From assembly GCA_034927505.1 (NCBI GenBank), contig JAYFPY010000004.1:13735-77734 (forward strand): a stretch of 64,000 bases of DNA. Direction: 5' to 3'. The notes beneath the pieces were generated by a model. The model made no database searches, was not told the DNA's origin, and was given only the letters and a program-made list of their open reading frames with translations. The position numbers and the translations under genes were made by a program. Of the stretch, positions 8,488 through 37,504 are shown one piece after another; position 1 is the stretch's first letter; each line of letters starts with the position of its first letter. Origin of the DNA: Eubacteriaceae bacterium (lineage in GTDB: Bacteria; Bacillota; Clostridia; Peptostreptococcales; Anaerovoracaceae).

Positions 8488-10979
<2,492 letters not shown>

Positions 10980-10993
<14 letters not shown>

Positions 10994-12876: not shown

Positions 12877-12948
12877 CAACGTTTCTAAGGGTCAAGCCAA
12901 GACAAACCCTCTTCGCCATCTGCAGTAACCGCTGCAGCCCACGAAATC

Positions 12949-12990
12949 GGTGTCGTGTAAGCATTTTTTTGCACGACCGAGCACCTTTTT
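12949..12990 (+). repeat. terminator-like hairpin element, copy 2 (degenerate left arm)
   Basis: The same right arm and tail as copy 1 (GCACGACCGAGCACCTTTTT), 115 bp downstream. The left arm GGTGTCGTG lacks 5 nt relative to copy 1. Confidence 0.5.
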
Positions 12991-13041
12991 CCGATACGCA
13001 CACCGTTTGCAGAAAATCAGCCCCCGTGATATTCTTGACCT

Positions 13042-13302
13042 ATGGATTATGTATATATATTAGAATGCAGAGACGGCAGCCTTTACACCGGCTGGACCAC
13101 AGATATAGATGCCCGGATCAAAGCACATAATGAAGGCAAAGGCGCAAAATACACCCGAGGCCGGGGCCCGGTAAAGCTGGTCCACCTGGAGACATTCGAC
13201 AACAGATCGGATGCATTAAAAAGAGAGATGGCCATCAAAAAGCTGACCCGCTCACAGAAAGAAAGGCTTATTTCCAAGGGAAGCATTATTTCAAAAGAAT
13301 AA
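13042..13302 (+). CDS. GIY-YIG nuclease family protein (UPF0213/YhbQ-like)
   Basis: MDYVYILECRDGSLYTGWTTDIDARIKAHNEGKGAKYTRGRGPV is the GIY-YIG motif set. 86 aa. Confidence 0.85.
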   Translation: MDYVYILECRDGSLYTGWTTDIDARIKAHNEGKGAKYTRGRGPVKLVHLETFDNRSDALKREMAIKKLTRSQKERLISKGSIISKE

Positions 13303-15169
13303 ATTTATCTACGACCTTGCCTTTATCGTCAACAGTCCTGACCGTCAGTGTTTTCTCTGTCACCGAATATATCTGATATGTGCTTTCCTTAAGACTTATT
13401 TTTGCCGCGTAGTCCGGTTTGCTGCTGTTTTCGCTGTAATAGTGTGTAGGTTTGTAGCCGGAGTCTCCCATCATGTATGTGATGCCGGAGATTTTTTTCG
13501 TACGCATGTAGACGTGCTGGTGACCGCAGTCAACAAGATCGACGCCTGTCTTTTGAAAGATCGGCACCCAGTTCTTTCGTATCTGCTTGTATATGGGATT
13601 GCCGTCGTCGCTGGCCGGATAAGCCGGATGATGCATGAAGACTATCTTCCATTTTGCACTGCTCCCGGACAGATCTTTTTCCAGCCAACTGTTCACTTCT
13701 TTGATCATGGTCTTCCAATTTTTGTTGCCAATGTCTTCCCGTCTTTCATCTGCAAAAATATTGCTGTTTAGGGACACAAAATGACAGTCGCCCCGGTCGA
13801 AAGAATACACTTCCTCCGACAGATCTTTCGGCCCGTTTTCAGGCATAGCTACTATCTGTTTGTATGTGTACGGCGTTATTGACGTCTCGTGATTCCCCGG
13901 CGTGGTCATCACCGGGACCTCTGTGAATGTGCTCTGGGTTTCATCGAGGAAAGAATCCCAGTCGTCCATGTCCGCATTTTTTTCTACCATATCGCCCATC
14001 ATCAATGTGAATTTGATGTTCGGCTCGCTGCGGTAAGCCTTGCTCAGCATGTCGCCCCATTTTTTCATATCTCTGTCACGAAGGCTGTACTGGACATCGC
14101 CCAGAGACATGAATTCAAATGTGCTGCTGTCTTTGCCTCTATCGGCTCCGGTCTCAAATGTGCTTTTATCGCTCCACTTCCTGCCGGCTCCGACTTCATA
14201 GCAGTACTTTGTTCCCGGCTCAAGACCGGTCAACGTTACCTCGTATCTATAATATTCGCCCTCCCTTACAACAGTCATTTTTGCTTTTTCAGAATGATCA
14301 TAGTCTCCCCTGGCCCTGTAACTTTTTTTCGATGCATACCTGACGTACTGATCTGTTTTTTCTTCCAGCTTCCATGATATAGTCTGAGTCGTCTTTGTAT
14401 CTTTAGTCCATGACAGCAATATCTGCGATGGTTTTTCCGCCGGAGTGTCAGCCGCAAGCGCAGGGTCGCTGTGGCTGATATGTATGCCTCCTAAAATAAA
14501 TCCCACACACAAAACCGGGAACAGGATCATCATGAGCCAGTCTCTTTTTTTCAGTTTCAGCTTTCTCATGTATGTGCGTTTCGGCCTTGAACGGAATGCC
14601 CTGGCTTCCATAGAGGCCGACATGTCTCTGGCCCGGCCCATTGCTCCTGCCAGGATCGGCAGACACATTTTTGTATAGATCTTCAGTTTCTTTTTTACAG
14701 AAGTCTTTTTGATCTCCGTTCCGCGGAGCTGTATGCTGTAGTATATGTCCAGTGCTTCCTCTTTCAGCACAGGGAAAAAGTGGAGCCCTGTCATTACCAT
14801 GTAGGCGATTTCATAGGGCACCTTCCACTGGACCAGCGCCAGCAGGTAATCCCGCACATGGCCGGTCATCAGTATCAAAGCGGACATTATTATTATCAGC
14901 AGCCGTATGCACAGCATGCCGCCGATGATCCACCGGCCGAATATGGCCTGGAGGATGAACAGGAAAACGACCATTGCAAAAGCCGCTCGCGCCTGTTTTA
15001 TCTGCCGGGCCGGTTCGACTCCGCCTGACAGCAGCAGTATCACTGTAAATACAAGCAGACCTGCCAGCATGATCAGATCGTCCACCACCATTGCCGCCGT
15101 CGAGATGGCAATTATCATTACTATCTTTGCTCTGGGATCCAGTCTGTCCAATTTAAACATGACTGCCAC
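13286..15169 (-). CDS. ECF transporter T component (EcfT/CbiQ-like) fused to an extracytoplasmic purple-acid-phosphatase-like metallophosphoesterase
   Basis: Residues 1-~215 are polytopic and contain the EcfT coupling region GRARDMSASMEARAFRSRPKRT. An extra TM helix follows (DWLMMILFPVLCVGFILGGI). Next comes an FN3-like PAP N-domain (ILLSWTKDTKTTQTISW...GLEPGTKYCYEV). The last part carries all the metallophosphatase motifs: LGDVQY, MGDMVE, PGNHE, VFMHHP, CGHQHVY. Confidence 0.8.
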   Translation of the reverse strand: MAVMFKLDRLDPRAKIVMIIAISTAAMVVDDLIMLAGLLVFTVILLLSGGVEPARQIKQARAAFAMVVFLFILQAIFGRWIIGGMLCIRLLIIIMSALILMTGHVRDYLLALVQWKVPYEIAYMVMTGLHFFPVLKEEALDIYYSIQLRGTEIKKTSVKKKLKIYTKMCLPILAGAMGRARDMSASMEARAFRSRPKRTYMRKLKLKKRDWLMMILFPVLCVGFILGGIHISHSDPALAADTPAEKPSQILLSWTKDTKTTQTISWKLEEKTDQYVRYASKKSYRARGDYDHSEKAKMTVVREGEYYRYEVTLTGLEPGTKYCYEVGAGRKWSDKSTFETGADRGKDSSTFEFMSLGDVQYSLRDRDMKKWGDMLSKAYRSEPNIKFTLMMGDMVEKNADMDDWDSFLDETQSTFTEVPVMTTPGNHETSITPYTYKQIVAMPENGPKDLSEEVYSFDRGDCHFVSLNSNIFADERREDIGNKNWKTMIKEVNSWLEKDLSGSSAKWKIVFMHHPAYPASDDGNPIYKQIRKNWVPIFQKTGVDLVDCGHQHVYMRTKKISGITYMMGDSGYKPTHYYSENSSKPDYAAKISLKESTYQIYSVTEKTLTVRTVDDKGKVVDKFILLK

Positions 15170-15806
15170 CTTCGATTTTCACCCGATCTTTGGTATACCG
15201 TTCAACGAAATCTCTGTCATGGCTGATTATTATGATGCCGCAGCCCTGTTCCCGATTTATTTTTAAAAGGTATTCTCCCAGCTGCTCCCTGCGCATATAG
15301 TCCAGAGAAGCTGTCGGCTCATCCAGCATGAGCCAGTTTGGTTTCATAGCCAGGACCGACGCCAGGACCAGTCTTTGTTTTTCACCGTGAGAAAGGCTGA
15401 ACGGAAAATCATCTTCTCTTCCCGACAGATCGAAATAATCAAGATACTCTTTCGCCCTCGATTCTTTTTCTTCGTCTTCCAGCCCCAGATTTTCCAGTCC
15501 GTACATTATTTCTTCCCTGACCGAAGTGGAGAATATCTGCCGCGCCGGATTCTGCATCACGTACCCTATCCTCCTGCCTGTTTCTGCAAGTGACAGACTC
15601 TTTGAATCCTCTCCATCTATCAAAACAGATCCGGTTTCGGCTTTCAGTATCCCCATTATCACGCGGGACAGTGTGGTCTTGCCGCTGCCGTTCTTCCCCG
15701 TCAGTGCAGTCATCTGTCCGTCGACAAATTCGGCTGAAAAATCATACAGCACCGGCGCCGATTTTTTATCATATCTGAAAGTGATGTTATCGATCTTTAT
15801 GCTCAC
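15153..15806 (-). CDS. ABC/ECF ATPase component (EcfA-like, short)
   Basis: Walker A GKNGSGKTT, signature LSHGEKQRL, Walker B WLMLDEPT, H-loop IIISHD. Overlaps both neighbouring genes. Confidence 0.85.
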   Translation of the reverse strand: MSIKIDNITFRYDKKSAPVLYDFSAEFVDGQMTALTGKNGSGKTTLSRVIMGILKAETGSVLIDGEDSKSLSLAETGRRIGYVMQNPARQIFSTSVREEIMYGLENLGLEDEEKESRAKEYLDYFDLSGREDDFPFSLSHGEKQRLVLASVLAMKPNWLMLDEPTASLDYMRREQLGEYLLKINREQGCGIIIISHDRDFVERYTKDRVKIEGGSHV

Positions 15807-16464
15807 TGATCTTCCCTTCTTCCATCCACATTATGCGATCTGCAAAATCCAAGGATCTGTAGTCATGATCTACGATCAAAACAGTTTTGCCGCTGCTGCG
15901 CAATTTTATCAAAGTTTTTTTCATCATGATCTTGCCGTCTTCGTCAAGATGGGAAAAAGGTTCATCCATTATCAGCATCTCCGGATCCATCGTCAGAACA
16001 GAGCCGATGGCGACCAGCTGTTTCTGTCCGCCGGACAGCTTTGAAGGGCTCGTCAGCGCCATGTAGCTCAACCCTAAAAGTTCCATCACTTCATCGACCC
16101 GATGACGTATCTCCGTCGGCGGAAGACATATGTTCTCCGGCCCGAAAGCCAGCTCGTCTTCTACTGTAGCAGCGACGATCTGCATGTCCGGATCCTGCAT
16201 GACGAATCCGATCTTCTGTCCCAGTTCTGCAGGGCTCCTGCCGATCATATCCCTGCCAGCCATAGTCAGTTCACCTGTCAGTTCACCGTCGATACAGCAT
16301 GGTATGATCCCTGTCATCACACGGCAAAGAGTGCTCTTGCCGCATCCCGACAATCCTGCCAGGGCGGTGATGCTCTCCTTTTTCAAATCGAAAGACACGC
16401 CGTCAAGGACGTGCCGTTCCGGCGACTCGTCATATGCAAATGTGATGTTCTTTGCTGTGATCAT
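15787..16464 (-). CDS. ABC/ECF ATPase component (EcfA-like, short)
   Basis: Walker A GLSGCGKST, signature LSGGQKQLV, Walker B MLIMDEPF, H-loop LIVDHD. Confidence 0.85.
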   Translation of the reverse strand: MITAKNITFAYDESPERHVLDGVSFDLKKESITALAGLSGCGKSTLCRVMTGIIPCCIDGELTGELTMAGRDMIGRSPAELGQKIGFVMQDPDMQIVAATVEDELAFGPENICLPPTEIRHRVDEVMELLGLSYMALTSPSKLSGGQKQLVAIGSVLTMDPEMLIMDEPFSHLDEDGKIMMKKTLIKLRSSGKTVLIVDHDYRSLDFADRIMWMEEGKISEHKDR

Positions 16465-16465
16465 T

Positions 16466-18079
16466 TTACCTTTTCAGACCTTTCACTTTGGACAAGTTTC
16501 CATATATCTTTTTGCCATTCACCTTTTTGTAAGCTCTTGCTTTATAGTAATATCTCTTTCCTTTTTTGAGTTTCTTGTTCGTATATCTCCTCGTACTGCC
16601 TTTGGTGATCGTCTTTATTTTTTTGTATTTCCCCTTCTTTTTCGACGCCCTGTATATCTGATATCCGGAAGCTCCTTTGACCTTTTTCCATGAAATCTTT
16701 ATTGATCTTGAACCTGATTTTTTCAGTGATATTGATGGGGCTGCAGGCTTTGCATAAGGAACCGGGATCGATGCAGCTGCTGCGGTCGAATAATCTCCGT
16801 AAATCTTGCTTTGTCCTGCATCGACACAGGCTCTTATTCTGTATCGGTATGTCTTGCCGACAGCAGTATCAGTATCGGTCCAGCGGTTATCTTTAACTGT
16901 TGCCATTTTATTATATGGTCCTTTCTCTGTATCAGCCCGATATATTTCATATCCATCTGCATATTTCGCACTGCTCCATGAAAGTGAAACAGCTGAATTT
17001 TTCGCCGAAACACTATTGATGACCGGTGTGCCCGGCTTGACAAGATTTCCTGCAGGATCCTTCACCGATATGGAGGCAACATTATATATGATGCCTCCGT
17101 CTTCACCGACCAGCATGAGTCTGCCGGTCTGCTGCGTTGGAGTATCCGATCTGTCATTATATCCCCAGGCCAGAAATGAGGAACTCATTGTTTTATTATC
17201 CTTTACTGTTTCTTTCCCCGCAGCGTCTGTTACCGTTATCTTATTGCCGTCATCTTCAGCATAATTGATTATGCCCAGAGATCCTGAAACCCTGCTGAAC
17301 GGTATACCTTCGTATTTTCCGTTTTTGAATATCCCCATACGCAGTATGTCAGTCATCGTCAGACTTCTTCCTTCATTGTTTTCCGTTGATATCGCCTTTT
17401 TTTCTTCGCCTGCAATGATATTATCTACGCCTGCTATGAATCTGCAGTTGGTATCTTCGGTGACACTTGTCTGTCCGTACATCAGCACATTATCATCTCG
17501 CGTCAGTTTCTCTGCCGCAGCCGGGACCTGCCCCTGCTCTGAAGTCCACTTGTATCCGTTGGTCGTTTTGTACAGTGCCAGTATGGGCCCGCTCAGCTCT
17601 TCCCCTGTTTCACTGCCCGGAGCAAAATAATAACGGTTTGCAAAAATATTCGGCGCATGAAATGTGATAGAATAATCGTCCGCCCCGGTGATCTTCAGTT
17701 TATCTGCTGAGTCCCCATCGACCCCGACAGTTTCCAGCATGGTTTTTATATCCAGTCCCGCACCTCTGCTGAAATAATATATCGGGTCGCTGTTTATGTG
17801 GTGATCATACGAGGAAAATACTCTGTCGCCGACCCAGCAGCTGCCCAGGCCCAGGCCCTCTGCTGTCTTCTTTTCCTTTGCATCCGAAATCTGCTTTGCT
17901 GTGATATAAGCAAAGTCCTTTTGGAATCCGCATCCCTTTGTTATTCCCTTGCCGTCTATGATCAGTCCCAGCTCTTCATTTGATGTATCTGCTTTTGCCA
18001 TATCTGCATATGTCCCGGCCGGCATCATTGCCGCTGCCAGACATAATATCAGTACAGCGATCATCATTCTTTTTTTCAT
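16466..18079 (-). CDS. secreted surface protein: SUOX-like modules + FN3 + basic FN3-like tail
   Basis: Signal peptide MKKRMMIAVLILCLAAAMMPAGTYA. Module motifs GAGLDIKTML, GADDYSI, PILALYK. FN3 domain (VSLSWSSAKYADGYEIYRA). Lys-rich C-terminus ISWKKVKGASGYQIYRASKKKGKYKK...KKGKRYYYKARAYKKVNGKKIYG. Confidence 0.75.
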   Translation of the reverse strand: MKKRMMIAVLILCLAAAMMPAGTYADMAKADTSNEELGLIIDGKGITKGCGFQKDFAYITAKQISDAKEKKTAEGLGLGSCWVGDRVFSSYDHHINSDPIYYFSRGAGLDIKTMLETVGVDGDSADKLKITGADDYSITFHAPNIFANRYYFAPGSETGEELSGPILALYKTTNGYKWTSEQGQVPAAAEKLTRDDNVLMYGQTSVTEDTNCRFIAGVDNIIAGEEKKAISTENNEGRSLTMTDILRMGIFKNGKYEGIPFSRVSGSLGIINYAEDDGNKITVTDAAGKETVKDNKTMSSSFLAWGYNDRSDTPTQQTGRLMLVGEDGGIIYNVASISVKDPAGNLVKPGTPVINSVSAKNSAVSLSWSSAKYADGYEIYRADTEKGPYNKMATVKDNRWTDTDTAVGKTYRYRIRACVDAGQSKIYGDYSTAAAASIPVPYAKPAAPSISLKKSGSRSIKISWKKVKGASGYQIYRASKKKGKYKKIKTITKGSTRRYTNKKLKKGKRYYYKARAYKKVNGKKIYGNLSKVKGLKR

Positions 18080-18082
18080 GTC

Positions 18083-19693
18083 CTACCTCTTTATGCGTTT
18101 TACACTGGACCATGATCCATATTTTTTGCTGCCTTTTACAGTTCTGTATGCACGGACCTTGAAATAGTATTTCTTTCCTTTTTTAAGCTTGCTGATGGTT
18201 TTCGATTTTGCGCTGTCTTTCTTGACATATACCGTTTTTCTGCTTTTAGTAATTTTTTTATTGGTTCCGTATCTGATCTGGTATCCGTATGCACCGCTTA
18301 CCTTTTTCCATCTCAGTAATGCACTTTTCCTGCCCTTCTTTTTCAGAGATGTGATCGAACTCTTGGAAAGCTGCGGTGTTTTTGATACGACGTTCCCGGT
18401 GCTGCTTTCCAGTGAAACAAAATTCTCTTTTTTAACGGCACTGATTTTATATGAATACTTTGTTCCTGTCAGCAGACTTTTGTCAATATATGAAGTAGAT
18501 GTGGTCTCTGCGATCTTGCTGTATCCGCCCTTGCCTGCCGCACGATAAACTGTATATCCGTCAGCTCCTGCCGATGCGCTCCATTTCAAAGATATACTGT
18601 TATATCTGCTGCCGGTCACTGATGTATTCGCAGGCGCTGACGGTGCTGTTGTTAGTTTCTCCGTATTCCAGATCACCTTTCCCGGTGTGAACAAAGCATA
18701 CTGCGATGTCTGTTCTGAAGGCGTATCCGTACTGTCTGAGAAGCCCCATGCCAGGAATGAAACCTTGATATCAGATCCTGTTATTACTGTCGTCTTCGAT
18801 GATGCCGCATCTGTCACAGCGATCTCGTTCCCCGTCACATTCATTTTCTCCATGACTTTTGTCAAAGGCAGGCCCGTGACATTATAACTGTTTCCTCCAT
18901 AAGAAAATTTGCTCTTATATATTCCCGCACGCAGGATCTCCTGTATATTCATATTCGAATATGAATCGTTCCCGTTTTTGAATATGCCGGTCTGGTCATC
19001 TACAATAATTGTGTCAACATACTTTCCATACAAACAATTGTTGTCTTCATCATACTTCTTCTGACCGAATACAAAGACATTCTCTCCTGCCGGCAGTCTT
19101 GTCACATCTCCCGGATCCTGCACGTCAGCAAAAGTCGACCCCATGCTGTCGGCCCTATAAAGAGCGATCAGCGGCACCCTGGTATTCTCACTTGCTGCTG
19201 TTGTATTCGGATGTGCAAAATAATATCTGTTTCCAAACACATTCTCTTCACCGGTGCTGCGAAGTATTCCGCTGTAACCGTCAGATGAATAATATGTCAA
19301 CTCCTTTACTTTGCCGGTATCTGTGCCCAGAGCAGCGATCATTTTTTTTACATCTATACCGCTTACTTTGCTGCGATGATAGTGCCCTGTTACTCCGTTT
19401 ATTTCACCATGAGGTTCGTGGGAGGAATAAATGGTATTTTCTGTCCAGCTTTCACCTATGTCATATCCGGAAACATTTTTGTTTGTTTTTATCGTTTCCA
19501 TTTCATCCTGTGTCAAATAGAAAACATTCCCCTGGAATCCTTCCTGCCCGGATATCCCTGATCCGCTGACTATCAGCCCCGGTGTCTCCGGCTCATCGGC
19601 AGCGTATCCTGTGCCGAAACTCATCGCCGCGACTACTGCCGCCGCAATCACTATCGCTAACGCTTTATTGATCATTCTTTTTAAAGACTTCAT
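18083..19693 (-). CDS. secreted surface protein: SUOX-like modules + FN3 + basic FN3-like tail
   Basis: Start at MKSLKRMINKALAIVIAAAVV (GGAG SD; the track start at 19735 lacks one). Motifs VSGIDVKKMI, SSDGYSG, PLIALYRA. C-terminus LRWKKVSGAYGYQIRYGTNKK...KKGKKYYFKVRAYRTVKGSKKYG. Confidence 0.75.
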   Translation of the reverse strand: MKSLKRMINKALAIVIAAAVVAAMSFGTGYAADEPETPGLIVSGSGISGQEGFQGNVFYLTQDEMETIKTNKNVSGYDIGESWTENTIYSSHEPHGEINGVTGHYHRSKVSGIDVKKMIAALGTDTGKVKELTYYSSDGYSGILRSTGEENVFGNRYYFAHPNTTAASENTRVPLIALYRADSMGSTFADVQDPGDVTRLPAGENVFVFGQKKYDEDNNCLYGKYVDTIIVDDQTGIFKNGNDSYSNMNIQEILRAGIYKSKFSYGGNSYNVTGLPLTKVMEKMNVTGNEIAVTDAASSKTTVITGSDIKVSFLAWGFSDSTDTPSEQTSQYALFTPGKVIWNTEKLTTAPSAPANTSVTGSRYNSISLKWSASAGADGYTVYRAAGKGGYSKIAETTSTSYIDKSLLTGTKYSYKISAVKKENFVSLESSTGNVVSKTPQLSKSSITSLKKKGRKSALLRWKKVSGAYGYQIRYGTNKKITKSRKTVYVKKDSAKSKTISKLKKGKKYYFKVRAYRTVKGSKKYGSWSSVKRIKR

Positions 19694-19766
19694 AATATTA
19701 TCTCCATAAGACCCTAATAGCCGATGAATTATCATCGGCTATCAGAGCAAATATACTGCTTTTTTA

Positions 19767-21431: not shown

Positions 21432-21547
21432 CTCTTTTTGCACGGTCTCCCGTGCTCTCCTTTCCGTTATACAAAAGTAAAAATAACCATCCTGTTCGAT
21501 TCTATCAGAAAACTGCATTTTATGTCGTTGTTTGAGCAACACTTTAC

Positions 21548-23263: not shown

Positions 23264-23275
23264 TTTTCCTCCCGT

Positions 23276-25354: not shown

Positions 25355-25368
25355 TTTTCACCCGTGAT

Positions 25369-26055: not shown

Positions 26056-26130
26056 CAAACTCCTTAATGCTTCATTATACCTCAGTTTCTCGGGAACGAA
26101 TGTTGTTTGAACAATATTTTTGACAATAGT

Positions 26131-26619
26131 TTACTTTTTGAACTGTATTTTTACGATCATTTTAGTCCAATCACTGGATTTTCCGTCCGGTATCAGCAGC
26201 CTAAGCGGTTTTTCAGAATCATTCAGCGCTTTTTCCCCATTGGCAACCGACAGTATTATCGAATCATGATTTGTTAAATAACTATTGTCCAAAACCGTTG
26301 TATACCCGTCTGAAGCAATGAAAATGATTTCGTCATAGTCGGTCTGTCCATGGCCATATTGTTCCAGAAAGGTATCCAGTGTGGGTCCGACAGCCGTAAC
26401 AGTTTTTTTCGTGGATTCCACTTCCCCCGAAGCTTTTGTACATTTCAGGTCCGCAAGTTGATCCGGAGTGATTTTAAAAGCTTTGTCTTTTATCCCCGTT
26501 ATCTGTATCTCTGTTTTGCCGTAGTCGGAAATATCAGCTGTGACCTCTGCACTGCAGCCTGCTGCAATACAGGACAAGATCATGATAAGGATCAGCAATA
26601 CCGCTTTTTGTTTTCTCAT
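26131..26619 (-). CDS. lipoprotein with a single SUOX/YedY-like module
   Basis: Lipobox IAAGC, then AVGPTLDTFL, ASDGYTT, IILSVANGEKAL, KPLRLLIP, DWTKMIVKIQF. Confidence 0.7.
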   Translation of the reverse strand: MRKQKAVLLILIMILSCIAAGCSAEVTADISDYGKTEIQITGIKDKAFKITPDQLADLKCTKASGEVESTKKTVTAVGPTLDTFLEQYGHGQTDYDEIIFIASDGYTTVLDNSYLTNHDSIILSVANGEKALNDSEKPLRLLIPDGKSSDWTKMIVKIQFKK

Positions 26620-26936
26620 TTGTTTTTCCCTTCGACTTTCACGTAGTATTTGCCGGTATCCGGATCCTGATATACAACTCCTTTTTCCTGAAGGCCGCTG
26701 TTGTTTTCTACTTCTTCTACCTGTTTGTCGTTCAGGTTTTCTGCATTATTGAGTTCTTCAACGTTCTGTACAGATGTTACGTCAACGTTCCAATGCATTA
26801 TCAGCGCCAGCATTATACCTACCGCCAAAATAAGCATGGCATCTACCAGATTTGATACTCCATCCATCGGATTTACATCTTCCTGGCTTTTTCTGGATGC
26901 GGTCGACAATCTTCCGCTGCCAAATCGTCTAAGCAT
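26616..26936 (-). CDS. ExbD/TolR-like (DUF2149-like) single-pass membrane protein
   Basis: Start at ATG 26936 (GGGAGGAG SD, 8-nt overlap with the upstream gene). Basic N-terminus, then EDVNPMDGVSNLVDAMLILAVGIMLALI with an Asp at the start of the TM helix, then a small periplasmic-type C-domain. Confidence 0.7.
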   Translation of the reverse strand: MLRRFGSGRLSTASRKSQEDVNPMDGVSNLVDAMLILAVGIMLALIMHWNVDVTSVQNVEELNNAENLNDKQVEEVENNSGLQEKGVVYQDPDTGKYYVKVEGKNK

Positions 26937-27570
26937 CTTTCTCCTCCCGGTTTTCTTCTTCAAGTACGCATTCCATCAAGGTCTCAAGCACTGACATATA
27001 ATTACTGTACCAGGTTTTTCTGATCGATGAAATCAGCAGTGCTATAGCTGCTGCTGCGAGACCTGCGATCGTTGTATCAAATGCCGTCAGCAGTGACTGC
27101 GACAATGTATTCGTATCACCCTGTCCCAGCGCAATGATCCCCGGCCCGAGCGGGATCAATGTACCTAAAAGACCCAGCATCGGTCCTATTTTAGCAATAA
27201 AATCTGTTACCTTGACACGTCTGTCATATATGGCCTGCTCTTCGCTCAAAAGCCTTATTGCCAGACTCTCCCGCATTGTACTGCTCAAATTACTATGCCT
27301 TGTCAATTCCAGCAGTGCAGCCTTTTGTCGTTTCAACAGGTTTCCTTCTTTGATCGTTTGGTTTATTTCTTTTGACTCATCTCTGATGTCATCCACCATA
27401 TGCGGCATGTCAGCCTTCAAATATCTCCTTTCGGTAAATACCTCCGCTATGATCGTTCCTATCAGCACCACTGTTGCTGCCAGTAAAATTATCAACAATA
27501 TTATTACCGGCCATCTCAGTCCTTCCGAGACACTTCTCAATACATCACTAAAACTACTTAATGAAAACAT
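26929..27570 (-). CDS. MotA/TolQ/ExbB proton-channel family protein
   Basis: 213 aa. N-terminal TM helix, cytoplasmic helical insert, then the family signature PMLGLLGTLIPLGPGIIALG...LLTAFDTTIAGLAAAAIALLI. Confidence 0.8.
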   Translation of the reverse strand: MFSLSSFSDVLRSVSEGLRWPVIILLIILLAATVVLIGTIIAEVFTERRYLKADMPHMVDDIRDESKEINQTIKEGNLLKRQKAALLELTRHSNLSSTMRESLAIRLLSEEQAIYDRRVKVTDFIAKIGPMLGLLGTLIPLGPGIIALGQGDTNTLSQSLLTAFDTTIAGLAAAAIALLISSIRKTWYSNYMSVLETLMECVLEEENREEKDA

Positions 27571-27580
27571 TCTTTTTTTA

Positions 27581-29059
27581 TCATCCTTTCCGTTTTAAAA
27601 TAATATCTGCAATACTTCTCTTTCCCGCAGAACGTCTGAAAAACAATATTTCTCCAATTACTCCGCCGCCCAGCAGCAGTCCGGCGGCAGCGGCAGTCAA
27701 CCCGTTCAGTCCTGATTCGGATGAAAAATCCACAGAAGCATTTTCCGGATCGAATTCTACCCATTGGTTTCCTGTTGAGTTCTTACTGTCATTGCTTTCG
27801 AAAGCTTTGTTCTCAGCCTGAGCAATTGCATTCGATGTCTTTTTATCTGCGATCTTCAACCCTCTGTTTTGATTTTGATTTCCGTTATCACCTTTCTGAT
27901 CATTGCTGCCATCGCCCTTCTTCTTATTGCCAGTTCCATTGTTCCCTTTTTTATCATCGTCATTATTTCCTGTGCCGCCTCCTCCATTTCCGGGATCTTT
28001 CTTGTTGTCAGAGTCGTCTGACCCTATCCCTGTCATCCCGGCCTGTGAAGACGCTGTTGTCTGTCCGCTGTATTCCTTTCGAGTATATGAAAACTGCATA
28101 GAAGTATCTCCTTTTCCGACGATTTCCACCTGACACTTTCCATCCTTCAGCATGGATCCTTCAGCCAGTCCGGTAACACTGACAATACTATTGTCGTATC
28201 CTGATACCTTGATATTTGAAAGCACCTGCTTTTTCAAAGCTGCCAGTGATTCTTTCGATAAATAGCTATAGGACTCAGGCAATGATACTGTACATGTCAG
28301 CTGATACTTGCTGCCTTTTTTATCCTTGCTGCCCGAGATCAATTTTTTTTCGATTTTGAGACCGGGACTGCCCTTGAGTTGCACTTCCATCTCGTATACC
28401 CATTTTCCGCTGCTTTGTACATTTTCACTGCCATCGTCAGTTTGACCATATATCAGTCGATATTGAAAATCTTTTGGCAGATCTCCCGTGCTGTACTGCT
28501 TGTAGCTGCCTCCCTGGTTTATCCGCAGTGCTTCGTCTCTGCTGAATTCAGTACATGCTATTGCAAGGATAGTAGGAACGGATTCTGCACCCGCTCCGTA
28601 TTTGGAAAAGCTGAAATCAGAGATCTGACCGTTGGACGGCATCTCTCTTGCCTGGTTTGGCAAATAGTATCTGCTTTTCAAAAGATCGTTGGCCGAAAAA
28701 GTCGTAGTGGATTCCCCGTAGTTGTCCGATGTTTTCATATGCAGATAGTTGACAGATCCCAGATCGATGTTGCAGTCGTTTATCAGGTTTTCCAGACTGG
28801 GCCCCCATCCGTAGCAAACGCGTGCAAAATGCCCGCTGTCTATCCCTGAATATGTGTATATTTCTGTACCGGCCAAATTTTTCATATCGGTCTCGGTGTA
28901 ATTTCCAACTTCGTAATACGGGCCTCCATAGAATCCTGCACTTATTTTTAGATTTCCTGCCTCCGCCTTCTGCGGTATCAACAGGCATGTCAAAATGAAC
29001 ATTAAAATAACTGCAGCGGCAATCGTTCTTTTTCTTTTTTGATGATTGTTTCTAACCAT
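27581..29059 (-). CDS. exported, C-terminally membrane-anchored protein with SUOX-like N-domain and G/N/D/K low-complexity linker
   Basis: Start taken at MVRNNHQKRKRTIAAAVILMFIL (29059), because the track start at 29101 sits inside a terminator hairpin. Signal peptide ends ...QKAEA. Motifs GWGPSLENLI, TSDNYGE, PTILAIA, YRLIYGQ, KWVYEMEV. An approximately 60-aa GNGGGGTGNNDDDKKGNNGTGNKKKGDGSNDQKGDNGNQNQN linker. C-terminal TM helix LTAAAAGLLLGGGVIGEILFF followed by RRSAGKR. Confidence 0.7.
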   Translation of the reverse strand: MVRNNHQKRKRTIAAAVILMFILTCLLIPQKAEAGNLKISAGFYGGPYYEVGNYTETDMKNLAGTEIYTYSGIDSGHFARVCYGWGPSLENLINDCNIDLGSVNYLHMKTSDNYGESTTTFSANDLLKSRYYLPNQAREMPSNGQISDFSFSKYGAGAESVPTILAIACTEFSRDEALRINQGGSYKQYSTGDLPKDFQYRLIYGQTDDGSENVQSSGKWVYEMEVQLKGSPGLKIEKKLISGSKDKKGSKYQLTCTVSLPESYSYLSKESLAALKKQVLSNIKVSGYDNSIVSVTGLAEGSMLKDGKCQVEIVGKGDTSMQFSYTRKEYSGQTTASSQAGMTGIGSDDSDNKKDPGNGGGGTGNNDDDKKGNNGTGNKKKGDGSNDQKGDNGNQNQNRGLKIADKKTSNAIAQAENKAFESNDSKNSTGNQWVEFDPENASVDFSSESGLNGLTAAAAGLLLGGGVIGEILFFRRSAGKRSIADIILKRKG

Positions 29060-29088
29060 TTGTTCTTTCTGTTCATAAAACCCATAAA

Positions 29089-29115
29089 GGGGCTGCCTCA
29101 TTGTGAGTCAGCCCC
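29089..29115 (-). terminator. intra-cluster hairpin (partial terminator or attenuator)
   Basis: Minus strand reads GGGGCUG-A-CUCA-CAA-UGAG-G-CAGCCCC (11 bp in total), followed by UUUAUGGGUUUUAU. Lies 32 nt after the stop of the 1394-aa gene. Confidence 0.45.
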
Positions 29116-29146
29116 AAATGGATCATTGGGTTTGATTTTGTATAGT

Positions 29147-32100
29147 CTATTTTACTTTTACAGTCTTGATAGAAGACCATCCGCCATAGACTTTTGTTTT
29201 ATTTACTGTACGGTAAACTCTTACTTTTACGTAGTATTTTTTACCTTTTTTCAGCTTGGTTTTTTTGTAGCTTTTTTTGCTTACCGGCAATGTTTTGACT
29301 ATTTTTGTCTTCTTCTTGGAAGTCGATATGGAAACCTGATATTTTGAAGCTCCTTTTACTTCCTTCCATGACACTGTCAGCTTTTTCTTACCTGCTTTTG
29401 TTTTGATTTTTGTCTTTGCAGGTGTCGGTCTAAGCCCTTTCACTTCCGAATAATTTCCGTAAACTGTGTGTGTCTGAGCCTTTGAATCTGAATACGTATT
29501 GAACGCTCTTACTTTGTAGTAATACGTTGTTCCGCACTGCAGACCTGTCTGGCTCAAAGAAACTGTCTTTGGATCACTTATTTTTGATATCAGTGAATAT
29601 GTTCCGTTCGCACTGGTCGATCGATACACTTCATAACCCTGTGCGGCACTGACCATATTCCATGACACTTTACCGCTATTGTACGAGGTTGCTGTTGCTG
29701 TCACTGTTATCGGTGAAGCCACCTTTACGCTGGCCAGCTGTGCTTTCAGATCGTCGATCTCATCTAGCTGCATCTGACTGTTTTTATCAGCTTCTTCCAA
29801 TTTTTCCTGAAGATCTCCCATTCCGCTATAGAACCAGTCTGACCATTCCCATGTGAACTGTGGATATCCGGATGTGTCCGTATAGGCTTCACCCAAAGTC
29901 CCCGCCAGTACTTTCAGTTCGTCTGATGTCTTTACTGCCGAATTGTCAGTTACTGTTGCTGCTGCTGAATTTCCTCCAACGGACGATGCTGCTGTACCTG
30001 TCAGATAGAATGTATTGCTTATGCTCGCATCCTTAGGCGTATATCCCATTATCGATCCGGTTTTTACAGTTCCGTTACTGCCCGTTACAATTCCTGCATT
30101 ATAGCAATTCGTCATGTCTGTCACATAATTGCCCTGTGTCCCGACTATTCCGCCGACACCCTGTGTTGCGCTTCCTTCTGAAGCAGTTACTGCACCCAGG
30201 TTGAAACAATTTGTAGTTGTTTTTATATATCCTGTCCCATATATTCCGCCTACTGAATAAGTCCCCTTTACTTCGCCAGTGTTGTAAAGATTGTCAGCAG
30301 TACCGCTTGGCGAAGCATAGTTTCCGGCAACTCCTCCTATATTGCTGGTTCCGCTTATATCTCCGGTATTGCCGCACTTGTACACTGCCTCTCCTGCATT
30401 TCCGACTATTCCTCCGATATTTCCGGCCGTGGCTGTTACATCTCCATTGTTGATGCAATTAGTAACAGTAGTTTTATTGCTCTGTCCGATTATTCCTCCG
30501 ATAAACGAAGTGCCCGCAACCTTTGCAGTATTCTTGCAGTTGATGACCTTTGAAGCATTCGAGCTCCCTACTCCTACAATTCCTCCAGTCTGTGATGATC
30601 CGCTGACTGATGCTCGGTTTATACATCCGGAAACTGTTCCGCTGCCGTAGATCTGTGCAACAATACCTCCGGTATATGATGCTGTAGATTTTACATTCCC
30701 CGAAGTAATTACATTTTTTACCGCACCATTGCTTAATACTCCTACCAACCCTGTATACGCTGTTGTAGAATCCATTCCCATTTTAATGGTTTTACCGCTT
30801 CCGTCAAAAGTTCCATTGTAATAAAACTGCTTTGAATAGTACGGTTTTTTTCCATTGCCGGTCTCTATCGTTATACTCAGTGTTCTTCCTATTGGCGTAT
30901 ACTTTATCTCGGAAAGGTCTATATTCTTTGTTACCTTTGCATTGATATCTGTCTTTCCCATTTTTCCTACCATATCGGAAAATGCCTGTAGCTCTGATGC
31001 ACCTGTAATAAGATATGTGCCCGCTGCGTCCTGTTTCGGTGCATTGGTCATGTCCAACGCTTCCACCTTTATGGTGTCGCTCTTTGTCGTATCTTTATAC
31101 TTGTAACTTACCGTAATGGTATTCGTCCCTGTTGTCAGTGCTGTGTCTGTACACGTGAAACCCTCCGTAAGGGCCTCGGTCTTTCCATTTGTATAGCTTA
31201 CCGTCAGCTTCATGTCTTTTGAGTCGAATTTCTCACCTGCCGCATAGTACATTTTAGTAGGTGCAGTTGTTATACCTACTGAGTCCAGCTGATTTTCTGT
31301 AACCGTTATATTAGTATCAAAGGAAAAATCTTTTCCTTCAAAAGTACCGCTGACAGTTTCTTTTGTATCTGTCGGTTTCAGCTCATCAGTGTTGCTTATC
31401 TTATAATCTACCGCAGTCAAATTCTGAGTAGTACCGTCGCTGTATGTTGCTGTCAGCACCATTCCGGCATCACTGAATGTCTGTCCTTCGACATAGTCAG
31501 TTTTTGTCGGCTGACTTTTCATCTCCACTTTCGTGACCGTAGCTGTACTGTCCGACTGCCACCTGAGTATCGGATAGCCATTATTTACGTTAGTTGCCTT
31601 GTCAGCAACATATGCGCCGCCCAGATCCGTCAGGAATGATGCCGCCTTCATTTCAGCATCTGTTTTCCTGATACCGTTTCTTGCAGTATCTCCTTCAAAA
31701 TCTTTATAATATGCGATCGTATCCAATGCATAATTGTTTACAAGAGTTGTTGTTGCATCTCCTCTTGGTGCAATTGCACAGTAGTCCTTATATCCTTGGT
31801 ATATGGTCCCAACAGTATAGCAGTTAGTTACAGTTGAAGATTTACTTGTGAATCCGGTTATCCCTGCTATCCATCGACTGTCGAAGTAATTTGGCGTGGC
31901 CTCAAGTGCTTTTGTGTTTACTGCACCGGTGTTATAACAGTTCACTATGTGGCCGTTTCCCCATTCAGTATTATTACATCCTGTTCGCCCTGCAATACCT
32001 GCCTGTCCATTGCCGCTGCCGCTGAACTGTGTATATATATTTCCGTGATTATAACATTTTGAAACGGTACCTTCGGTCTCTCCGACGATACCTCCGATCT

Positions 32101-33331
32101 TTTTATATGACTTGATGAATCCCTCATTGCCGCATTCAGTGATGAGTCCTTCAGCTCCATCTATTGTTCTGTTGATATCCTTGCCGGTTGTAGAATCTCT
32201 CCATTTTTCTGCAGCATTGAATCCGGCGATCCCGCCGACATTACCCGACCACAATGCTGTCAAAGCCACTTTTGATATTACCCTTTTGATAGTGCCGCAG
32301 TTGAATCCGGCAACGCTGCCTACAAAATCCGATGTAGGATCTACACCCGTGCTTTTGCCTTCAGTAGATGTACATGTTACCGCTCCTATAACCGTAAGAT
32401 TTTCTATTGTCCCGGCGTTGAAACCGAACAGACCTGTGAAATTAGGTTCTGCTCCGTCAACTGTCTTCGCATTAATATTAAGATTTTTTATCGTTTTACC
32501 GTTACCGTCAAAGGTGCCTTTGAATTTATAAGTTGCAGTTCCGTCTTCCAGTTTAGCACCGCCGCCTATCGGCGTGAACTCCTTGTCATTGAGATCGATG
32601 TTCTTTGACAGTTTTATGTATTTCCCATCGAAAGTGTTCCCGCTGTTTACCTGCGATGACAGATAAGCCATATGTGTGCCATTTGATATGATATAAGGAT
32701 CTGCCTCGGTCCCTGTTCCGGATTCAAATCCGGTCCCTGCGGTTCCATCCCACTCATTTTTTGAAACGGAAATGGTGGTTTTCTCTGTGCTGAAAAGACC
32801 GCTGATCCAGTTTGTTTTATTAAAGTCCTTCGTTCCCGTTTGACCGTATACCAGCATTCCTGTATCTTTTGTAATTATTGGATCCACTTTGACTTTTGTA
32901 TCGTCATCGACCAGCGCTCCGTCCTTCAAAGTAAACGAATATCGATCTGTTCCAAACAGCTCTTTTACCGTCATATCTCTGGAAACGTCATCCGCTGCAG
33001 ATTTAACAGTTATTATCTGCTCTTCATCCAGTTTTGATACATCTATATTCGCCTTTGCAAGAATATCCGCAAGTTTAACTCCTGTATATTCGCTGCTGTC
33101 TACGCCCTTCTTATTTAGCGAACTGTATGTTGCAGTTACAGGTGTCAGGGAATTATACATATCCTCCGTAACTGTTGCAGTATCGCTTCCGTATGCGATT
33201 TTCAATTTTGCAGTGTCATCTGCCGAAGCTTTCGATGTCATGCCTGCAAACAGCGACATTATCATTACTAAAGTAATGAACATCGCTAACATTTTCTGAG
33301 ATTTCTTTCTCACAGTATTATCTGTGTACAT
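29147..33331 (-). CDS. giant secreted surface protein (SUOX-like N-module, GLUG-type repeats, Big_3-like Ig domains, FN3, basic FN3-like tail)
   Basis: Start at ATG 33331 (AAGGGAG SD). Signal peptide MLAMFITLVMIMSLFAGMTSKASA. YTGVKLADIL module. More than 15 G-G-I-[AV]-G repeats (GGIAGFN, IGGIVGET, TGGIVGVG, IGGIIGQS...). Three Ig-like repeats (TKTDYVEGQTFSDAGMVLTATYSDGTTQNL). Coiled coil, FN3, and C-terminus VSWKEVKGASKYQV...KKGKKYYVKVRVYRTVNKTKVYG. Confidence 0.8.
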   Translation of the reverse strand: MYTDNTVRKKSQKMLAMFITLVMIMSLFAGMTSKASADDTAKLKIAYGSDTATVTEDMYNSLTPVTATYSSLNKKGVDSSEYTGVKLADILAKANIDVSKLDEEQIITVKSAADDVSRDMTVKELFGTDRYSFTLKDGALVDDDTKVKVDPIITKDTGMLVYGQTGTKDFNKTNWISGLFSTEKTTISVSKNEWDGTAGTGFESGTGTEADPYIISNGTHMAYLSSQVNSGNTFDGKYIKLSKNIDLNDKEFTPIGGGAKLEDGTATYKFKGTFDGNGKTIKNLNINAKTVDGAEPNFTGLFGFNAGTIENLTVIGAVTCTSTEGKSTGVDPTSDFVGSVAGFNCGTIKRVISKVALTALWSGNVGGIAGFNAAEKWRDSTTGKDINRTIDGAEGLITECGNEGFIKSYKKIGGIVGETEGTVSKCYNHGNIYTQFSGSGNGQAGIAGRTGCNNTEWGNGHIVNCYNTGAVNTKALEATPNYFDSRWIAGITGFTSKSSTVTNCYTVGTIYQGYKDYCAIAPRGDATTTLVNNYALDTIAYYKDFEGDTARNGIRKTDAEMKAASFLTDLGGAYVADKATNVNNGYPILRWQSDSTATVTKVEMKSQPTKTDYVEGQTFSDAGMVLTATYSDGTTQNLTAVDYKISNTDELKPTDTKETVSGTFEGKDFSFDTNITVTENQLDSVGITTAPTKMYYAAGEKFDSKDMKLTVSYTNGKTEALTEGFTCTDTALTTGTNTITVSYKYKDTTKSDTIKVEALDMTNAPKQDAAGTYLITGASELQAFSDMVGKMGKTDINAKVTKNIDLSEIKYTPIGRTLSITIETGNGKKPYYSKQFYYNGTFDGSGKTIKMGMDSTTAYTGLVGVLSNGAVKNVITSGNVKSTASYTGGIVAQIYGSGTVSGCINRASVSGSSQTGGIVGVGSSNASKVINCKNTAKVAGTSFIGGIIGQSNKTTVTNCINNGDVTATAGNIGGIVGNAGEAVYKCGNTGDISGTSNIGGVAGNYASPSGTADNLYNTGEVKGTYSVGGIYGTGYIKTTTNCFNLGAVTASEGSATQGVGGIVGTQGNYVTDMTNCYNAGIVTGSNGTVKTGSIMGYTPKDASISNTFYLTGTAASSVGGNSAAATVTDNSAVKTSDELKVLAGTLGEAYTDTSGYPQFTWEWSDWFYSGMGDLQEKLEEADKNSQMQLDEIDDLKAQLASVKVASPITVTATATSYNSGKVSWNMVSAAQGYEVYRSTSANGTYSLISKISDPKTVSLSQTGLQCGTTYYYKVRAFNTYSDSKAQTHTVYGNYSEVKGLRPTPAKTKIKTKAGKKKLTVSWKEVKGASKYQVSISTSKKKTKIVKTLPVSKKSYKKTKLKKGKKYYVKVRVYRTVNKTKVYGGWSSIKTVKVK

Positions 33332-33418
33332 CTTTTCTCCCTTCATTTTACAATCTGTTTTGCAAATCTATCAATAATTCTTAAGACTTAATCAGACTGA
33401 CATTATACTTCATCATTC

Positions 33419-33447
33419 AAAAAAAGCATGTTGGCTCGCCAACATAC
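33419..33447 (-). terminator. strong intrinsic terminator in the leader upstream of the cluster
   Basis: Minus strand reads GUAUGUUGG-CGAG-CCAACAUGC (9-bp stem with one G.U pair, tetraloop) followed by UUUUUUU. Lies about 85 nt upstream of the 33331 start codon. Confidence 0.7.
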
Positions 33448-33634
33448 TTTGCAATTTCCCGTATTTATTTTCTCTTTTTATCATAATGACAACATTTATC
33501 TATCATATTGGATGCTTTTCGAGCCGCTTCGGCTCTTCTTATTTCTCTTTGTTGTTAAGGTATTCTTTACGGTTCTGGCCTGGCTGTTTATCATTGTCTA
33601 AAATACTGTGGCAGTATCTTGCTCTTCTATTGAT

Positions 33635-33663
33635 ATTATACTGGCTGGCCGTCTGCATTTCAA
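33635..33663 (-). promoter_or_regulatory. consensus sigma-A type promoter facing the cluster
   Basis: Minus strand reads TTGAAA-17 nt-TATAAT (-35 at 33658-33663, -10 at 33635-33640). Predicted TSS about 33627-33628. Confidence 0.55.
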
Positions 33664-33717
33664 CTTGCCGCAAAAACAAACTCGCGCTTTTCTTCCCCGA
33701 TATGATATAATCGCTTC

Positions 33718-37503: not shown

Positions 37504-37504
37504 A

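Follow-up and report, generated by a model that had tools for sequence, protein, structure and literature searches.

A clostridial gene cluster joining an ECF transporter to cysteine-less SUOX-fold surface modules and a separable MotA-DUF2149 unit, with Moco-type riboswitches in its relatives

Energy-coupling factor (ECF) transporters by definition work without an extracytoplasmic binding protein. In PruR, a non-enzymatic pterin-binding protein of the periplasm, Y104 stacks on the pterin, a feature common to enzymes of the sulfite oxidase (SUOX) fold (PMC11194511), and in the Porphyromonas hmu haem operon HmuU belongs to the MotA/ExbB family and HmuV is a DUF2149 protein (PMC11681262). Molybdenum cofactor (Moco) riboswitch RNAs that lack the P3 stem correlate with tungsten-cofactor metabolism and have been proposed as a tungsten-cofactor (Tuco) class, and Regulski et al. 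(2008) reported, as unexplained exceptions, P3-less RNAs ahead of Syntrophomonas wolfei genes for a 'putative sulphite oxidase' (PMC2408646). Most organisms are generally said to be incapable of taking up Moco itself (PMC9026282); nematodes, which obtain it from their diet, are the exceptions that we found in the literature. Here we describe a cluster of 16 genes from a Eubacteriaceae bacterium (contig JAYFPY010000004.1, assembly GCA_034927505.1) that has parts in common with each of these systems. It lies in a stretch of 64,000 nt, which we call the window, and it encodes an ECF transporter, a MotA-DUF2149 pair and nine surface proteins built from a SUOX-like module that has lost the molybdenum-ligand cysteine.

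We tentatively read the cluster as an acquisition system of the tungsten/molybdenum (W/Mo) cofactor regulon, made of two coupled parts and with a molybdopterin-type pterin as the favoured ligand, an account to which we give a little less than an even chance. Uptake of W or Mo itself is less likely, and we rank it below scavenging of a pterin-type cofactor or precursor. The 16 open reading frames (ORFs; g01 to g16) are all on the minus strand and fill 13286-33346. Two of the gaps are wider than the rest, at 72 nt (g05/g06) and 45 nt (g01/g02); elsewhere neighbouring genes overlap by 4-35 nt or are separated by 1-31 nt. The original prediction had proposed a tight minus-strand cluster of 16 genes with this content, which the ORFs and profile searches bear out. 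Its statement that the junctions are under 35 nt apart from one 72-nt spacer holds for most of them, the g01/g02 gap being the exception, and the end that it gave for the cluster, 33663, is the first base of the promoter and not of the coding region.

The module was detected with a hidden Markov model (HMM) built from g10-like proteins and iterated on related loci. This HMM matched four times in g07 (23276-25354, 692 aa), a lipoprotein; once each in the lipoproteins g05 (26131-26619, 162 aa; 5e-27, lipobox AAGC) and g08 (22664-23263, 199 aa), in the membrane-anchored g10 (21548-22105, 185 aa), in the type I membrane protein g02 (27581-29101, 506 aa) and in the giant secreted protein g01 (29147-33346, 1399 aa); and twice each in the secreted proteins g12 (18083-19735, 550 aa), which has two fn3 domains, and g13 (16466-18079, 537 aa), also with fn3 domains. 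The secreted g11 (19767-21551, 594 aa) was negative in a direct search with the HMM, and single-sequence hhalign matched 23 residues; a profile of the g11 family was required, and with it profile-profile hhalign found two divergent copies at 95.6% and 90.3% probability. From these counts, all nine surface proteins carry the module, in 15 copies total. The Pfam family Oxidored_molyb was matched in g05 (3e-6), g07 (2e-14), g08 and g10 (4e-8).

Both the sequence profile of the module and a structure search identify the same relatives. An AlphaFold2 model of g10 (pLDDT 83) has PruR as its nearest neighbour (7kos, 7kou and 7kom, E ~1e-7), followed by sulfite oxidase and YedY, and Foldseek gives it a probability of 1.0 to 1sox and 1xdq, the SUOX Moco-domain fold; the sequence profile likewise matches sulfite oxidase and PruR. 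Thus the proposal of nine surface proteins with a SUOX/YedY-like fold is supported by the HMM, by profile-profile comparison and by structure, PruR is the nearest member, and no known operon of this composition was found.

We then located the molybdenum-ligand position with a YedY-like control, in which the cysteine stands in 'LDCVEGWS'. None of 321 module domains has a cysteine in this column, which is instead occupied by Ser (82), Asn (77), Asp (36), Thr (24) and others, with Arg and Lys also among the residues found. The modules are therefore not canonical molybdoenzymes, and we rejected the possibility that they are true ones. Their most conserved motif is D122-G-Y124, invariant or nearly so, which aligns with N102-x-Y104 of PruR; it pairs with the N-D-Y of the Vibrio vulnificus protein, Asn being replaced by Asp in the modules. 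The g10 family also retains a SUOX-like G-N-R-S-T-K segment that is not found in PruR. As read from the translations, the module proteins have Sec or lipoprotein N-termini and no twin-arginine motif. Pfam detected no GGDEF or EAL genes, which would encode a DcpA-type partner, among the cluster proteins of the window. In our reading, the modules would be non-catalytic receptors for a pterin-type ligand.

The surface proteins differ in how they are anchored. Across loci the module occurs on lipoproteins, on membrane-anchored proteins and with SLH or fn3 domains, in one to four copies per protein. In g01 an N-terminal module (residues 50-172, 1.5e-12) is followed by Big_3 and fn3 domains and by regions of GG[IL][VA]G repeats, and the C-terminus is a lysine-rich fn3 domain. 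The GLUG repeats originally assigned to this protein were not recovered, Pfam giving only fn3 and Big_3, and the GG[IL][VA]G repeats are what can be seen in the translation. Lysine-rich fn3-like C-terminal domains with the motif KKGKKYYFKVRAYR end four of the proteins, at 16466-16760 (g13), 18083-18380 (g12), 19767-20060 (g11) and 29147-29440 (g01), all on the minus strand, and those of g11 and g12 are 53% identical. This domain may be a non-covalent cell-wall anchor.

The transporter itself has the S, T and two A subunits in one operon, the composition of a dedicated group I ECF system. The S component, g09 (22071-22667, 198 aa), matches ABC_cobalt (PF09819, 2e-16) and forms a distinct subfamily of it. 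The first ATPase (A), g14 (15787-16464, 225 aa), matches ABC_tran (6e-26) and TIGR04520 ECF_ATPase_1 (1e-57), and the second (A'), g15 (15153-15806, 217 aa), matches ABC_tran (9e-31). In g16 (13286-15169, 627 aa) an EcfT (CbiQ, 6e-19) is continued by an extra transmembrane helix and an extracellular metallophosphoesterase (Pur_ac_phosph_N, 3e-18; Metallophos, 4e-15). The phosphatase-like domain matches kidney-bean purple acid phosphatase (1kbp, 1e-12) and keeps the motifs GD, GNHE, HH and GHQH, with Glu in place of the chromophore Tyr of GDxxY. These subunits, the EcfT-phosphatase fusion included, had been predicted together with the MotA/ExbB-like, DUF2149 and Crp/Fnr proteins, and Pfam and NCBIfam profiles matched all of them.

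The PF09819/COG4721 annotation would make this a transporter of thiamine, hydroxymethylpyrimidine or another ordinary vitamin. Indeed, the sole solved relative of g09 is the thiamine-binding YkoE (profile E 3e-4), which also matches its AlphaFold2 model (pLDDT 88, six helices) at a TM-score of 0.73 (5edl), and an APH-like kinase gene is present in 18 of the related loci. However, the YkoE thiamine contacts Y46, W49, E77, Q95 and D131 align to G50, Y53, V81, P101 and V137 of g09, so that four of the five (Y46, E77, Q95 and D131) are replaced, and Rfam scans of the window and of 32 related loci gave no thiamine pyrophosphate (TPP) riboswitch, as against Moco riboswitches in 15 of those 32. On the binding residues and the lack of TPP riboswitches we rejected a thiamine or hydroxymethylpyrimidine identity for the S component and consider this explanation highly improbable. 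The APH/Bud32-like kinases are small proteins of Alkaliphilus-type operons, one of them at L040 6017-6757 and the others in 17 further loci.

Instead, the S component has features of its own. A motif missing from YkoE, H114-x2-C117-C118-x2-C121, is invariant in 19 sequences of 52-100% identity, and the AlphaFold2 model places it partly in the loop that joins helix 4 to helix 5 and partly where helix 5 begins. This loop position, together with the usual N-in topology, puts it on the cytoplasmic face. It may serve as a metal site or a site of cofactor hand-over. The invariant residues of the membrane helices are aromatic or amide: Y53, W56, Y98, Q77, N130 and N138.

To follow the cluster across genomes, we used an S-component profile that found 474 relatives in contigs taken at one genome per species, and we analysed the best 80 loci with 10-kb flanks; profile scans covered 84 loci and unbiased neighbour clustering 80 non-duplicate ones. 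The set spans Anaerovoracaceae, Peptococcaceae, Pelotomaculum, Syntrophomonas, Alkaliphilus, Desulfosporosinus, Halanaerobiales and a few metagenome-assembled genomes (MAGs) labelled Actinomycetota. Among the cultivable carriers are Zhenpiania hominis, Alkaliphilus peptidifermentans, Anaerovirgula multivorans and Pelotomaculum terephthalicicum. A module protein is present in 76-80 of the 84 loci (~95%), nearly always flanking S, and in five loci S, a transmembrane segment and the module are fused. A and A' are found in 73/84 loci and T in 69/84. The purple-acid-phosphatase-like domain occurs in ~20 loci; its fusion to T is limited to Anaerovoracaceae-like loci and is seen in ~9 related loci, and elsewhere the phosphatase is a separate gene. 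Nearly the whole 16-gene order is kept in two Anaerovoracaceae MAGs (L009 and L010), and subsets of it are found across Clostridia. In Candidatus Formimonas warabiya, for example, the ECF, module, MotA and DUF2149 genes and a separate phosphatase stand beside a ModABC-like system. The adjacency of ECF, module and MotA/DUF2149 genes is thus a property of many genomes and not only of this one, as the original prediction required; neither of the two outcomes that it named as refuting it was observed.

The link to W and Mo comes in large part from riboswitches in these relatives. Rfam detects the Moco family RF01055 in 15 of the 32 related loci at 59-82 bits, against a cut-off of 36; the matches share the strand of the operon and come shortly before its first gene. 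With our own covariance model, built from 19 RF01055 aptamers of related loci, we found 36 aptamers in 25 of the 80 S-anchored loci, often in tandem or triple arrangement. The P3 stem is missing from all 19 aligned aptamers. Three gene orders recur after the aptamer, each in several loci: FMN_bind, a two-module protein, S, module, A, A', T and MobB; ApbE, S, a giant module protein, an anchored protein, MotA and DUF2149; and a TupA-like gene, S, A, A', T and onward. In one locus (L034) a promoter, an aptamer (189-307) and a 12-bp terminator (323-350) follow in succession, a layout typical of a transcription-termination platform. This cluster family may explain the anomaly of the riboswitches before 'putative sulphite oxidase' genes in S. 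wolfei. Tandem or triple P3-less riboswitches were seen at L037 8356-8650, L039 8186-8652, L063 6096-6370, L060 3438-3718 and L066 6954-7240, arrays that recall the triple arrangement reported for S. wolfei.

The genes around the cluster belong to the same field. Divergent from it on the plus strand are an NTPase_1 (THEP1-like) P-loop protein (33718..34335; PF03266, 5e-15), which adjoins the cluster in 25-30 loci (25/80 by neighbour clustering), and a DUF4213/DUF364 protein (34308..35039; PF04016, 1.5e-30), present in 15-17 related loci (15/80 by neighbour clustering). DUF364 is known to adjoin molybdate and tungstate transporters (PMC2954201; bioRxiv 10.1101/2024.03.05.583561). The upstream neighbour on the minus strand is a MobB/FeS-domain protein (35040..35786; PF03205 4.5e-18, NF011064 2e-34), whose orthologue of ~250 aa is found in 34/80 loci, often directly after EcfT. 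By family match, other neighbours are XdhC, MocA-like, ModA/ModB, TupA-like and ModE-like helix-turn-helix (HTH) proteins, a TrmO+FmdE protein, Peripla_BP_2/FecCD and a Mo-hydroxylase.

Based on these data, we hypothesize that the widespread core of the system would be a dedicated ECF importer (S, A, A' and T) served by extracytoplasmic, cysteine-less modules of the SUOX/PruR fold. Secreted, lipid-anchored and membrane-anchored modules at several depths of the envelope would bind the ligand and relay it inward, with g10 as the likely last relay station that hands it to S; the ECF module would then import it, and cytoplasmic MobB/FeS, NTPase_1 and DUF364 proteins would receive it. The ligand could be the tungsten or molybdenum cofactor, a pterin precursor or a breakdown product shed by other cells, and the purple-acid-phosphatase-like domain on the surface of EcfT may trim a phosphoester or dinucleotide before uptake. 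The multi-module surface proteins, the Shr-like_HID domains of one relative (L037) and the surface phosphatase give the system a scavenging flavour. The giant module protein of L037 has two Shr-like_HID domains together with SLH repeats, which hints at protein-directed capture.

Several observations weigh against this account. The window has no Rfam family at gathering threshold, thus no RF01055, and no match to our covariance model, so that the W/Mo link at this locus depends on orthology and on the MobB/FeS and DUF364 neighbours. The modules lack the Trp that PruR has at the position of the cysteine. Riboswitch control would fit metal uptake, or proteins that use the cofactor, equally well. 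Furthermore, Moco is labile in its free form, and its uptake is thought to be beyond most organisms (PMC9026282).

Direct import of the metal is the first rival. The ECF transporter would carry W or Mo as tungstate, molybdate, a thio-form or a metal chelate, and the modules, perhaps with the phosphatase-like domain, would be surface receptors for the oxyanion or metal. P3-less Moco riboswitches classically stand ahead of tungstate and molybdate transporters (PMC2408646), and DUF364 is typical of molybdate/tungstate transporter operons. A TupA-like protein is encoded first in riboswitch operons of the L054 type, with no TupBC beside it, which weighs against pterin uptake, since the ECF transporter of such an operon could take tungstate. 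The purple acid phosphatase homologue 1kbp has the same sequence as 3kbp and 4kbp, and tungstate and molybdate are tight-binding inhibitors of enzymes of this family. However, we know of no SUOX-fold protein that binds an oxyanion without a pterin cofactor, and the residues kept in the modules are the pterin-contact ones, which is one of the reasons why we favour a pterin over the bare metal. A second is that in relatives these operons can contain or adjoin complete ModABC or Peripla_BP_2/FecCD (type II ABC) importers, which points to a substrate other than the bare oxyanion. A third is that the helix residues of S resemble the aromatic and amide pattern typical of vitamin-binding S components, with no Arg-rich anion site. 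We therefore consider metal import unlikely, although a serious contender.

Neighbours of another kind raise the question of direction. Some 17 riboswitch-controlled operons start with a gene for ApbE, a flavin transferase, or for an FMN_bind protein. Such genes count against pterin uptake, since a simple relay would have no need of the extracytoplasmic redox chemistry at which they hint. Relatives that begin with ApbE or an RnfG/NqrC-like FMN_bind gene, and the giant module protein of L037, are represented by L037 8742-9824 and 10799-14476 and L026 8320-8865. A pterin or Mo/W cofactor might be exported, to load Sec-exported surface redox enzymes of the SUOX fold that are fed by flavinylated FMN_bind proteins. 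ECF-type cofactor exporters exist, such as Listeria EetB/FmnA (PMC9973259), and Moco riboswitches also precede genes of cofactor-using enzymes (PMC2408646). The His/Cys cluster on the cytoplasmic face of S and the MobB/FeS protein after EcfT could form a loading site, and the Sec and lipoprotein signals of the module proteins, which are not twin-arginine (Tat) signals, imply that a cofactor would be inserted outside the cell. In contrast, the modules have no molybdenum-ligand cysteine, and its replacement by variable residues is unlike a catalytic ligand; the 15 modules spread over nine proteins, together with the surface phosphatase, the Shr-like_HID domains and the TonB-like unit, suggest capture and not catalysis; and the window has no ApbE or FMN_bind gene. 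Export is in our judgement quite improbable, and an inward direction remains part of the acquisition model.

The second part of that model is an accessory unit of g01 to g04. The channel candidate g03 (26929-27570, 213 aa) is a MotA/ExbB/TolQ-family proton-channel subunit (MotA_ExbB, PF01618, 4e-12) whose profile weakly matches MotA and ExbB structures; it has an invariant block, GLLGTLIPLGPG..ALGxGD, and keeps the conserved helices of the MotA-like family. An exact-sequence look-up of this protein returned no record. The next gene, g04 (26616-26963, 115 aa), encodes a DUF2149 protein (PF09919, 3e-9) with a single transmembrane helix and ExbD/TolR-like topology. N31, N38 and D41 of DUF2149 are invariant in 24 sequences, D41 being inside the transmembrane helix; a comparison of DUF2149 with the PDB gave no relative, and g04 has no ExbD Pfam match. 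Upstream, g02 consists of a signal peptide, the module (HMM residues 60-240), a linker rich in G, N, D and K, a C-terminal transmembrane anchor and a basic tail. In at least 18 of 24 loci the gene immediately before MotA encodes a C-terminally anchored protein that has an N-terminal signal and is usually a module protein, and giant g01 homologues come after MotA-DUF2149 in many loci. The Pfam scan of the cluster proteins found no TonB domain. We suggest that g02, with its distal module and long linker, may be a TonB-like partner of the motor, and that g02, the g03 channel, the g04 subunit and the giant g01 would use the proton-motive force for TonB-like mechanical work on surface proteins, for example to strip or release bound ligand.

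The MotA-like and DUF2149 genes are present in 24 of the 80 S-anchored loci, always as a pair. We also searched metagenome contigs with the MotA-like protein as the anchor and a reach of 10 kb, which gave 80 loci, 17 of them with at least 5 kb on both sides. DUF2149 is paired with the MotA-like gene in 78/80 of these. Among the 17 well-flanked loci, DUF2149 is present in all 17, a g01-like giant in 12, a g02-like anchored protein in 11, a SUOX-like module in 10, an S component in two and EcfT in one. By these counts the constant partners of the motor are surface proteins and not the ECF importer. The original prediction combined an ECF importer and an ExbBD-type energiser in one system; the two are indeed linked in the 24 S-anchored loci, but the association is not obligate, and, because the constant partners are the anchored module protein and the giants, the linkage does not show that an ExbBD-type pair energises the ECF importer. 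Its further suggestion, the uptake of a vitamin, cofactor or metal complex, is narrowed by the riboswitches and gene neighbours of the relatives to the Mo/W regulon, while capture, its energisation and direction are steps that we infer.

These counts also bear against a coupled system. The motor is mostly without a nearby ECF transporter, and it is found beside integrases together with a giant protein in which no module is detected, so that its role may be unrelated to uptake. On this explanation the motor unit would be an independent device, for adhesion, tensioning of surface proteins or export, that shares only regulation or the module fold with the transporter. Loci of the L154-L162 type, on human-gut metagenome contigs, hold only MotA, DUF2149 and, after them, a giant protein (1,400-2,400 aa) that has neither a Pfam domain nor a SUOX-like module; in L157 (3746-20307) these three genes lie beside two phage-type integrases, and such loci may be a mobile, ECF-independent form of the motor unit. 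Conversely, the Zhenpiania hominis cluster consists of the ECF, module and T-phosphatase genes and is without the motor. However, 10/17 of the MotA-anchored loci still carry SUOX-like modules, and in the window both g01 and g02 do. S components may also be encoded far from their partners. Furthermore, a P3-less riboswitch is found directly upstream of the motor and module genes in 9/50 MotA-anchored loci, which were retrieved independently; in one of them (L093) the riboswitch is followed, in this order, by the genes for the anchored module protein, MotA, DUF2149, a module and a giant protein. We regard mere juxtaposition as unlikely. The motor unit is separable, and it enters the Mo/W regulon when its surface partners carry the module.

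Taken at its fullest, the acquisition model would describe the first bacterial salvage of a Mo/W cofactor (or pterin) and the first TonB-like capture in a monoderm: modules would strip the cofactor from released enzymes, the motor would pull a wall-spanning receptor, the phosphodiesterase would trim the ligand, and the ECF transporter would import it to chaperones of the MobB/FeS type. We put this forward as a bold and doubtful extension. The literature that we searched describes no ECF system in a Moco regulon, although Rodionov et al. (2009), the original ECF survey, may mention one; it also gave neither a bacterial Moco transporter or pterin importer nor a monoderm in which a MotA/ExbB-type motor is coupled to surface receptors, and no description of a system of this type was found in Sun et al. 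(2013). The parts are of known kinds, and their combination is undescribed in that literature.

Expression of the cluster in the window appears to start from a sigma-70-like promoter, TTGAAA-17-TATAAT, on the minus strand at 33663..33635, which is the top match of its kind in 25000-33800 (11/12 positions). It is followed by a leader of ~290 nt (33347..33634, minus strand) with a terminator-like hairpin at 33450..33423, a 12-bp stem and then a T run. The leader has a folding z-score of -2.76 against shuffled controls; it matched no Rfam family above noise, even at E up to 10, and related loci do not conserve it. Perhaps a lineage-specific attenuator here takes the place of the Moco riboswitch. 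The cluster also encodes a Crp/Fnr-family regulator, g06 (25369-26058, 229 aa; HTH_Crp_2 and cNMP_binding in Pfam), with orthologues in 14/80 related loci. The G+C content is 0.41-0.43 over 18000-34000, the surface-protein part, compared to 0.46-0.52 in the flanks and the A/T genes, which may come from lysine-rich composition or from separate acquisition.

The nearest database proteins are named as those of Eubacteriaceae or Anaerovoracaceae MAGs, and the host carries in the window a dlt operon, which fits a monoderm that bears teichoic acid; at 57221-61301 we find dltD, a gene of the MBOAT family and an AMP-binding-enzyme gene, consistent with such an operon. Directly downstream of the cluster and on the same strand (11576-13003, minus) is an aldo/keto reductase with a C-terminal 4Fe-4S dicluster domain; it is not among the conserved neighbour families in the clustering, and no search was aimed at it. 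Two genes between the MobB/FeS gene and the next operon, u4 and u5 (204 and 393 aa; 35797-37593, minus), gave no Pfam or NCBIfam match. Elsewhere, positions 1-10993 hold PstS and PstC genes and, between 3390 and 10993, six genes for V-type ATPase subunits; the PBP_like_2 protein at 815-1840 was considered as a TupA and rejected, as it is PstS. An S8 subtilase of 1236 aa with Kelch repeats is encoded at 51221-54931.

W and Mo enzymes drive much of the metabolism of anaerobes in the gut, in digesters and in sediments, and a widespread, riboswitch-defined system with 474 S-component relatives would give such organisms a second route to the W/Mo cofactor or metal. It would offer a function for DUF2149, DUF364, NTPase_1 and MobB/FeS proteins and for lipoproteins annotated as 'molybdopterin-dependent oxidoreductase' to which the usual mode of Mo binding is closed. 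It also touches the textbook view that ECF transporters work without binding proteins, and would provide a testable case of a MotA/ExbB-type motor acting on Gram-positive surface proteins.

Among known W/Mo systems, ModABC, TupABC and WtpABC share with the cluster the riboswitch class and the neighbours DUF364, MobB and ModE-like proteins (PMC2408646). In contrast, their transport proteins are not homologous to those of the cluster, and they often co-occur with it and do not replace it. The flavin exporter EetB/FmnA of Listeria resembles the cluster in that ECF-type subunits are tied to extracytoplasmic cofactor-binding proteins, and ApbE and FMN_bind are present in some of the relatives (PMC9973259). 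However, its S component is of another family, nothing in the cluster is evidence for export, and the modules are without a catalytic ligand.

The motor unit is closest to TonB-ExbB-ExbD, in which a MotA/ExbB-family channel also works with a single-pass partner that has a transmembrane Asp, and in the cluster this pair follows a membrane-anchored, extended, ligand-related protein. The same MotA and DUF2149 pair serves haem acquisition in HmuSTUV, the only described context that we found for it. Unlike these systems, the cluster belongs to a monoderm, as judged from the dlt operon, and has no outer-membrane receptor, TonB domain or ExbD Pfam match; its anchored partner is a type I protein, with a C-terminal anchor and a SUOX-like module, and there is no CobN-like HmuS.

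For the surface proteins, the Isd/Shr relay of haem through NEAT domains in Gram-positive bacteria offers a parallel: one fold is repeated one to four times on surface proteins at varied depths, ending at a transporter, and Shr-like_HID domains are found in a relative of the cluster. The fold is nevertheless SUOX-like and not NEAT, the transporter is of the ECF type and the regulon is that of Mo/W and not of iron. Anchoring is by lipid, transmembrane segments, SLH or lysine-rich fn3 domains, with no sortase signal seen. The module itself is most similar to PruR (7kos, 7kou, 7kom, 7kp2; PMC11194511), which likewise is a small, secreted protein of the SUOX fold that lacks the Mo-binding cysteine and keeps the pterin-stacking Tyr. 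The position of the cysteine is Pro-Trp in PruR and S, N, D or T in the modules. PruR signals to DcpA, a diguanylate cyclase/phosphodiesterase, in Proteobacteria, whereas the modules have multiplied on the surface proteins of Firmicutes and are linked to a transporter.

Finally, the transporter is that of group I ECF systems such as YkoEDC and CbiMNQO in having S, T and two A subunits together, an S component with the fold of YkoE and a CbiQ-type T. It differs from them in that the S component is without the thiamine residues and has the cytoplasmic H-x2-CC-x2-C motif, and in that S is constantly partnered, and sometimes fused, with an extracytoplasmic module of a binding fold. Furthermore, the T subunit of the cluster is fused to a surface phosphatase, and its relatives are under the control of Moco/Tuco riboswitches.

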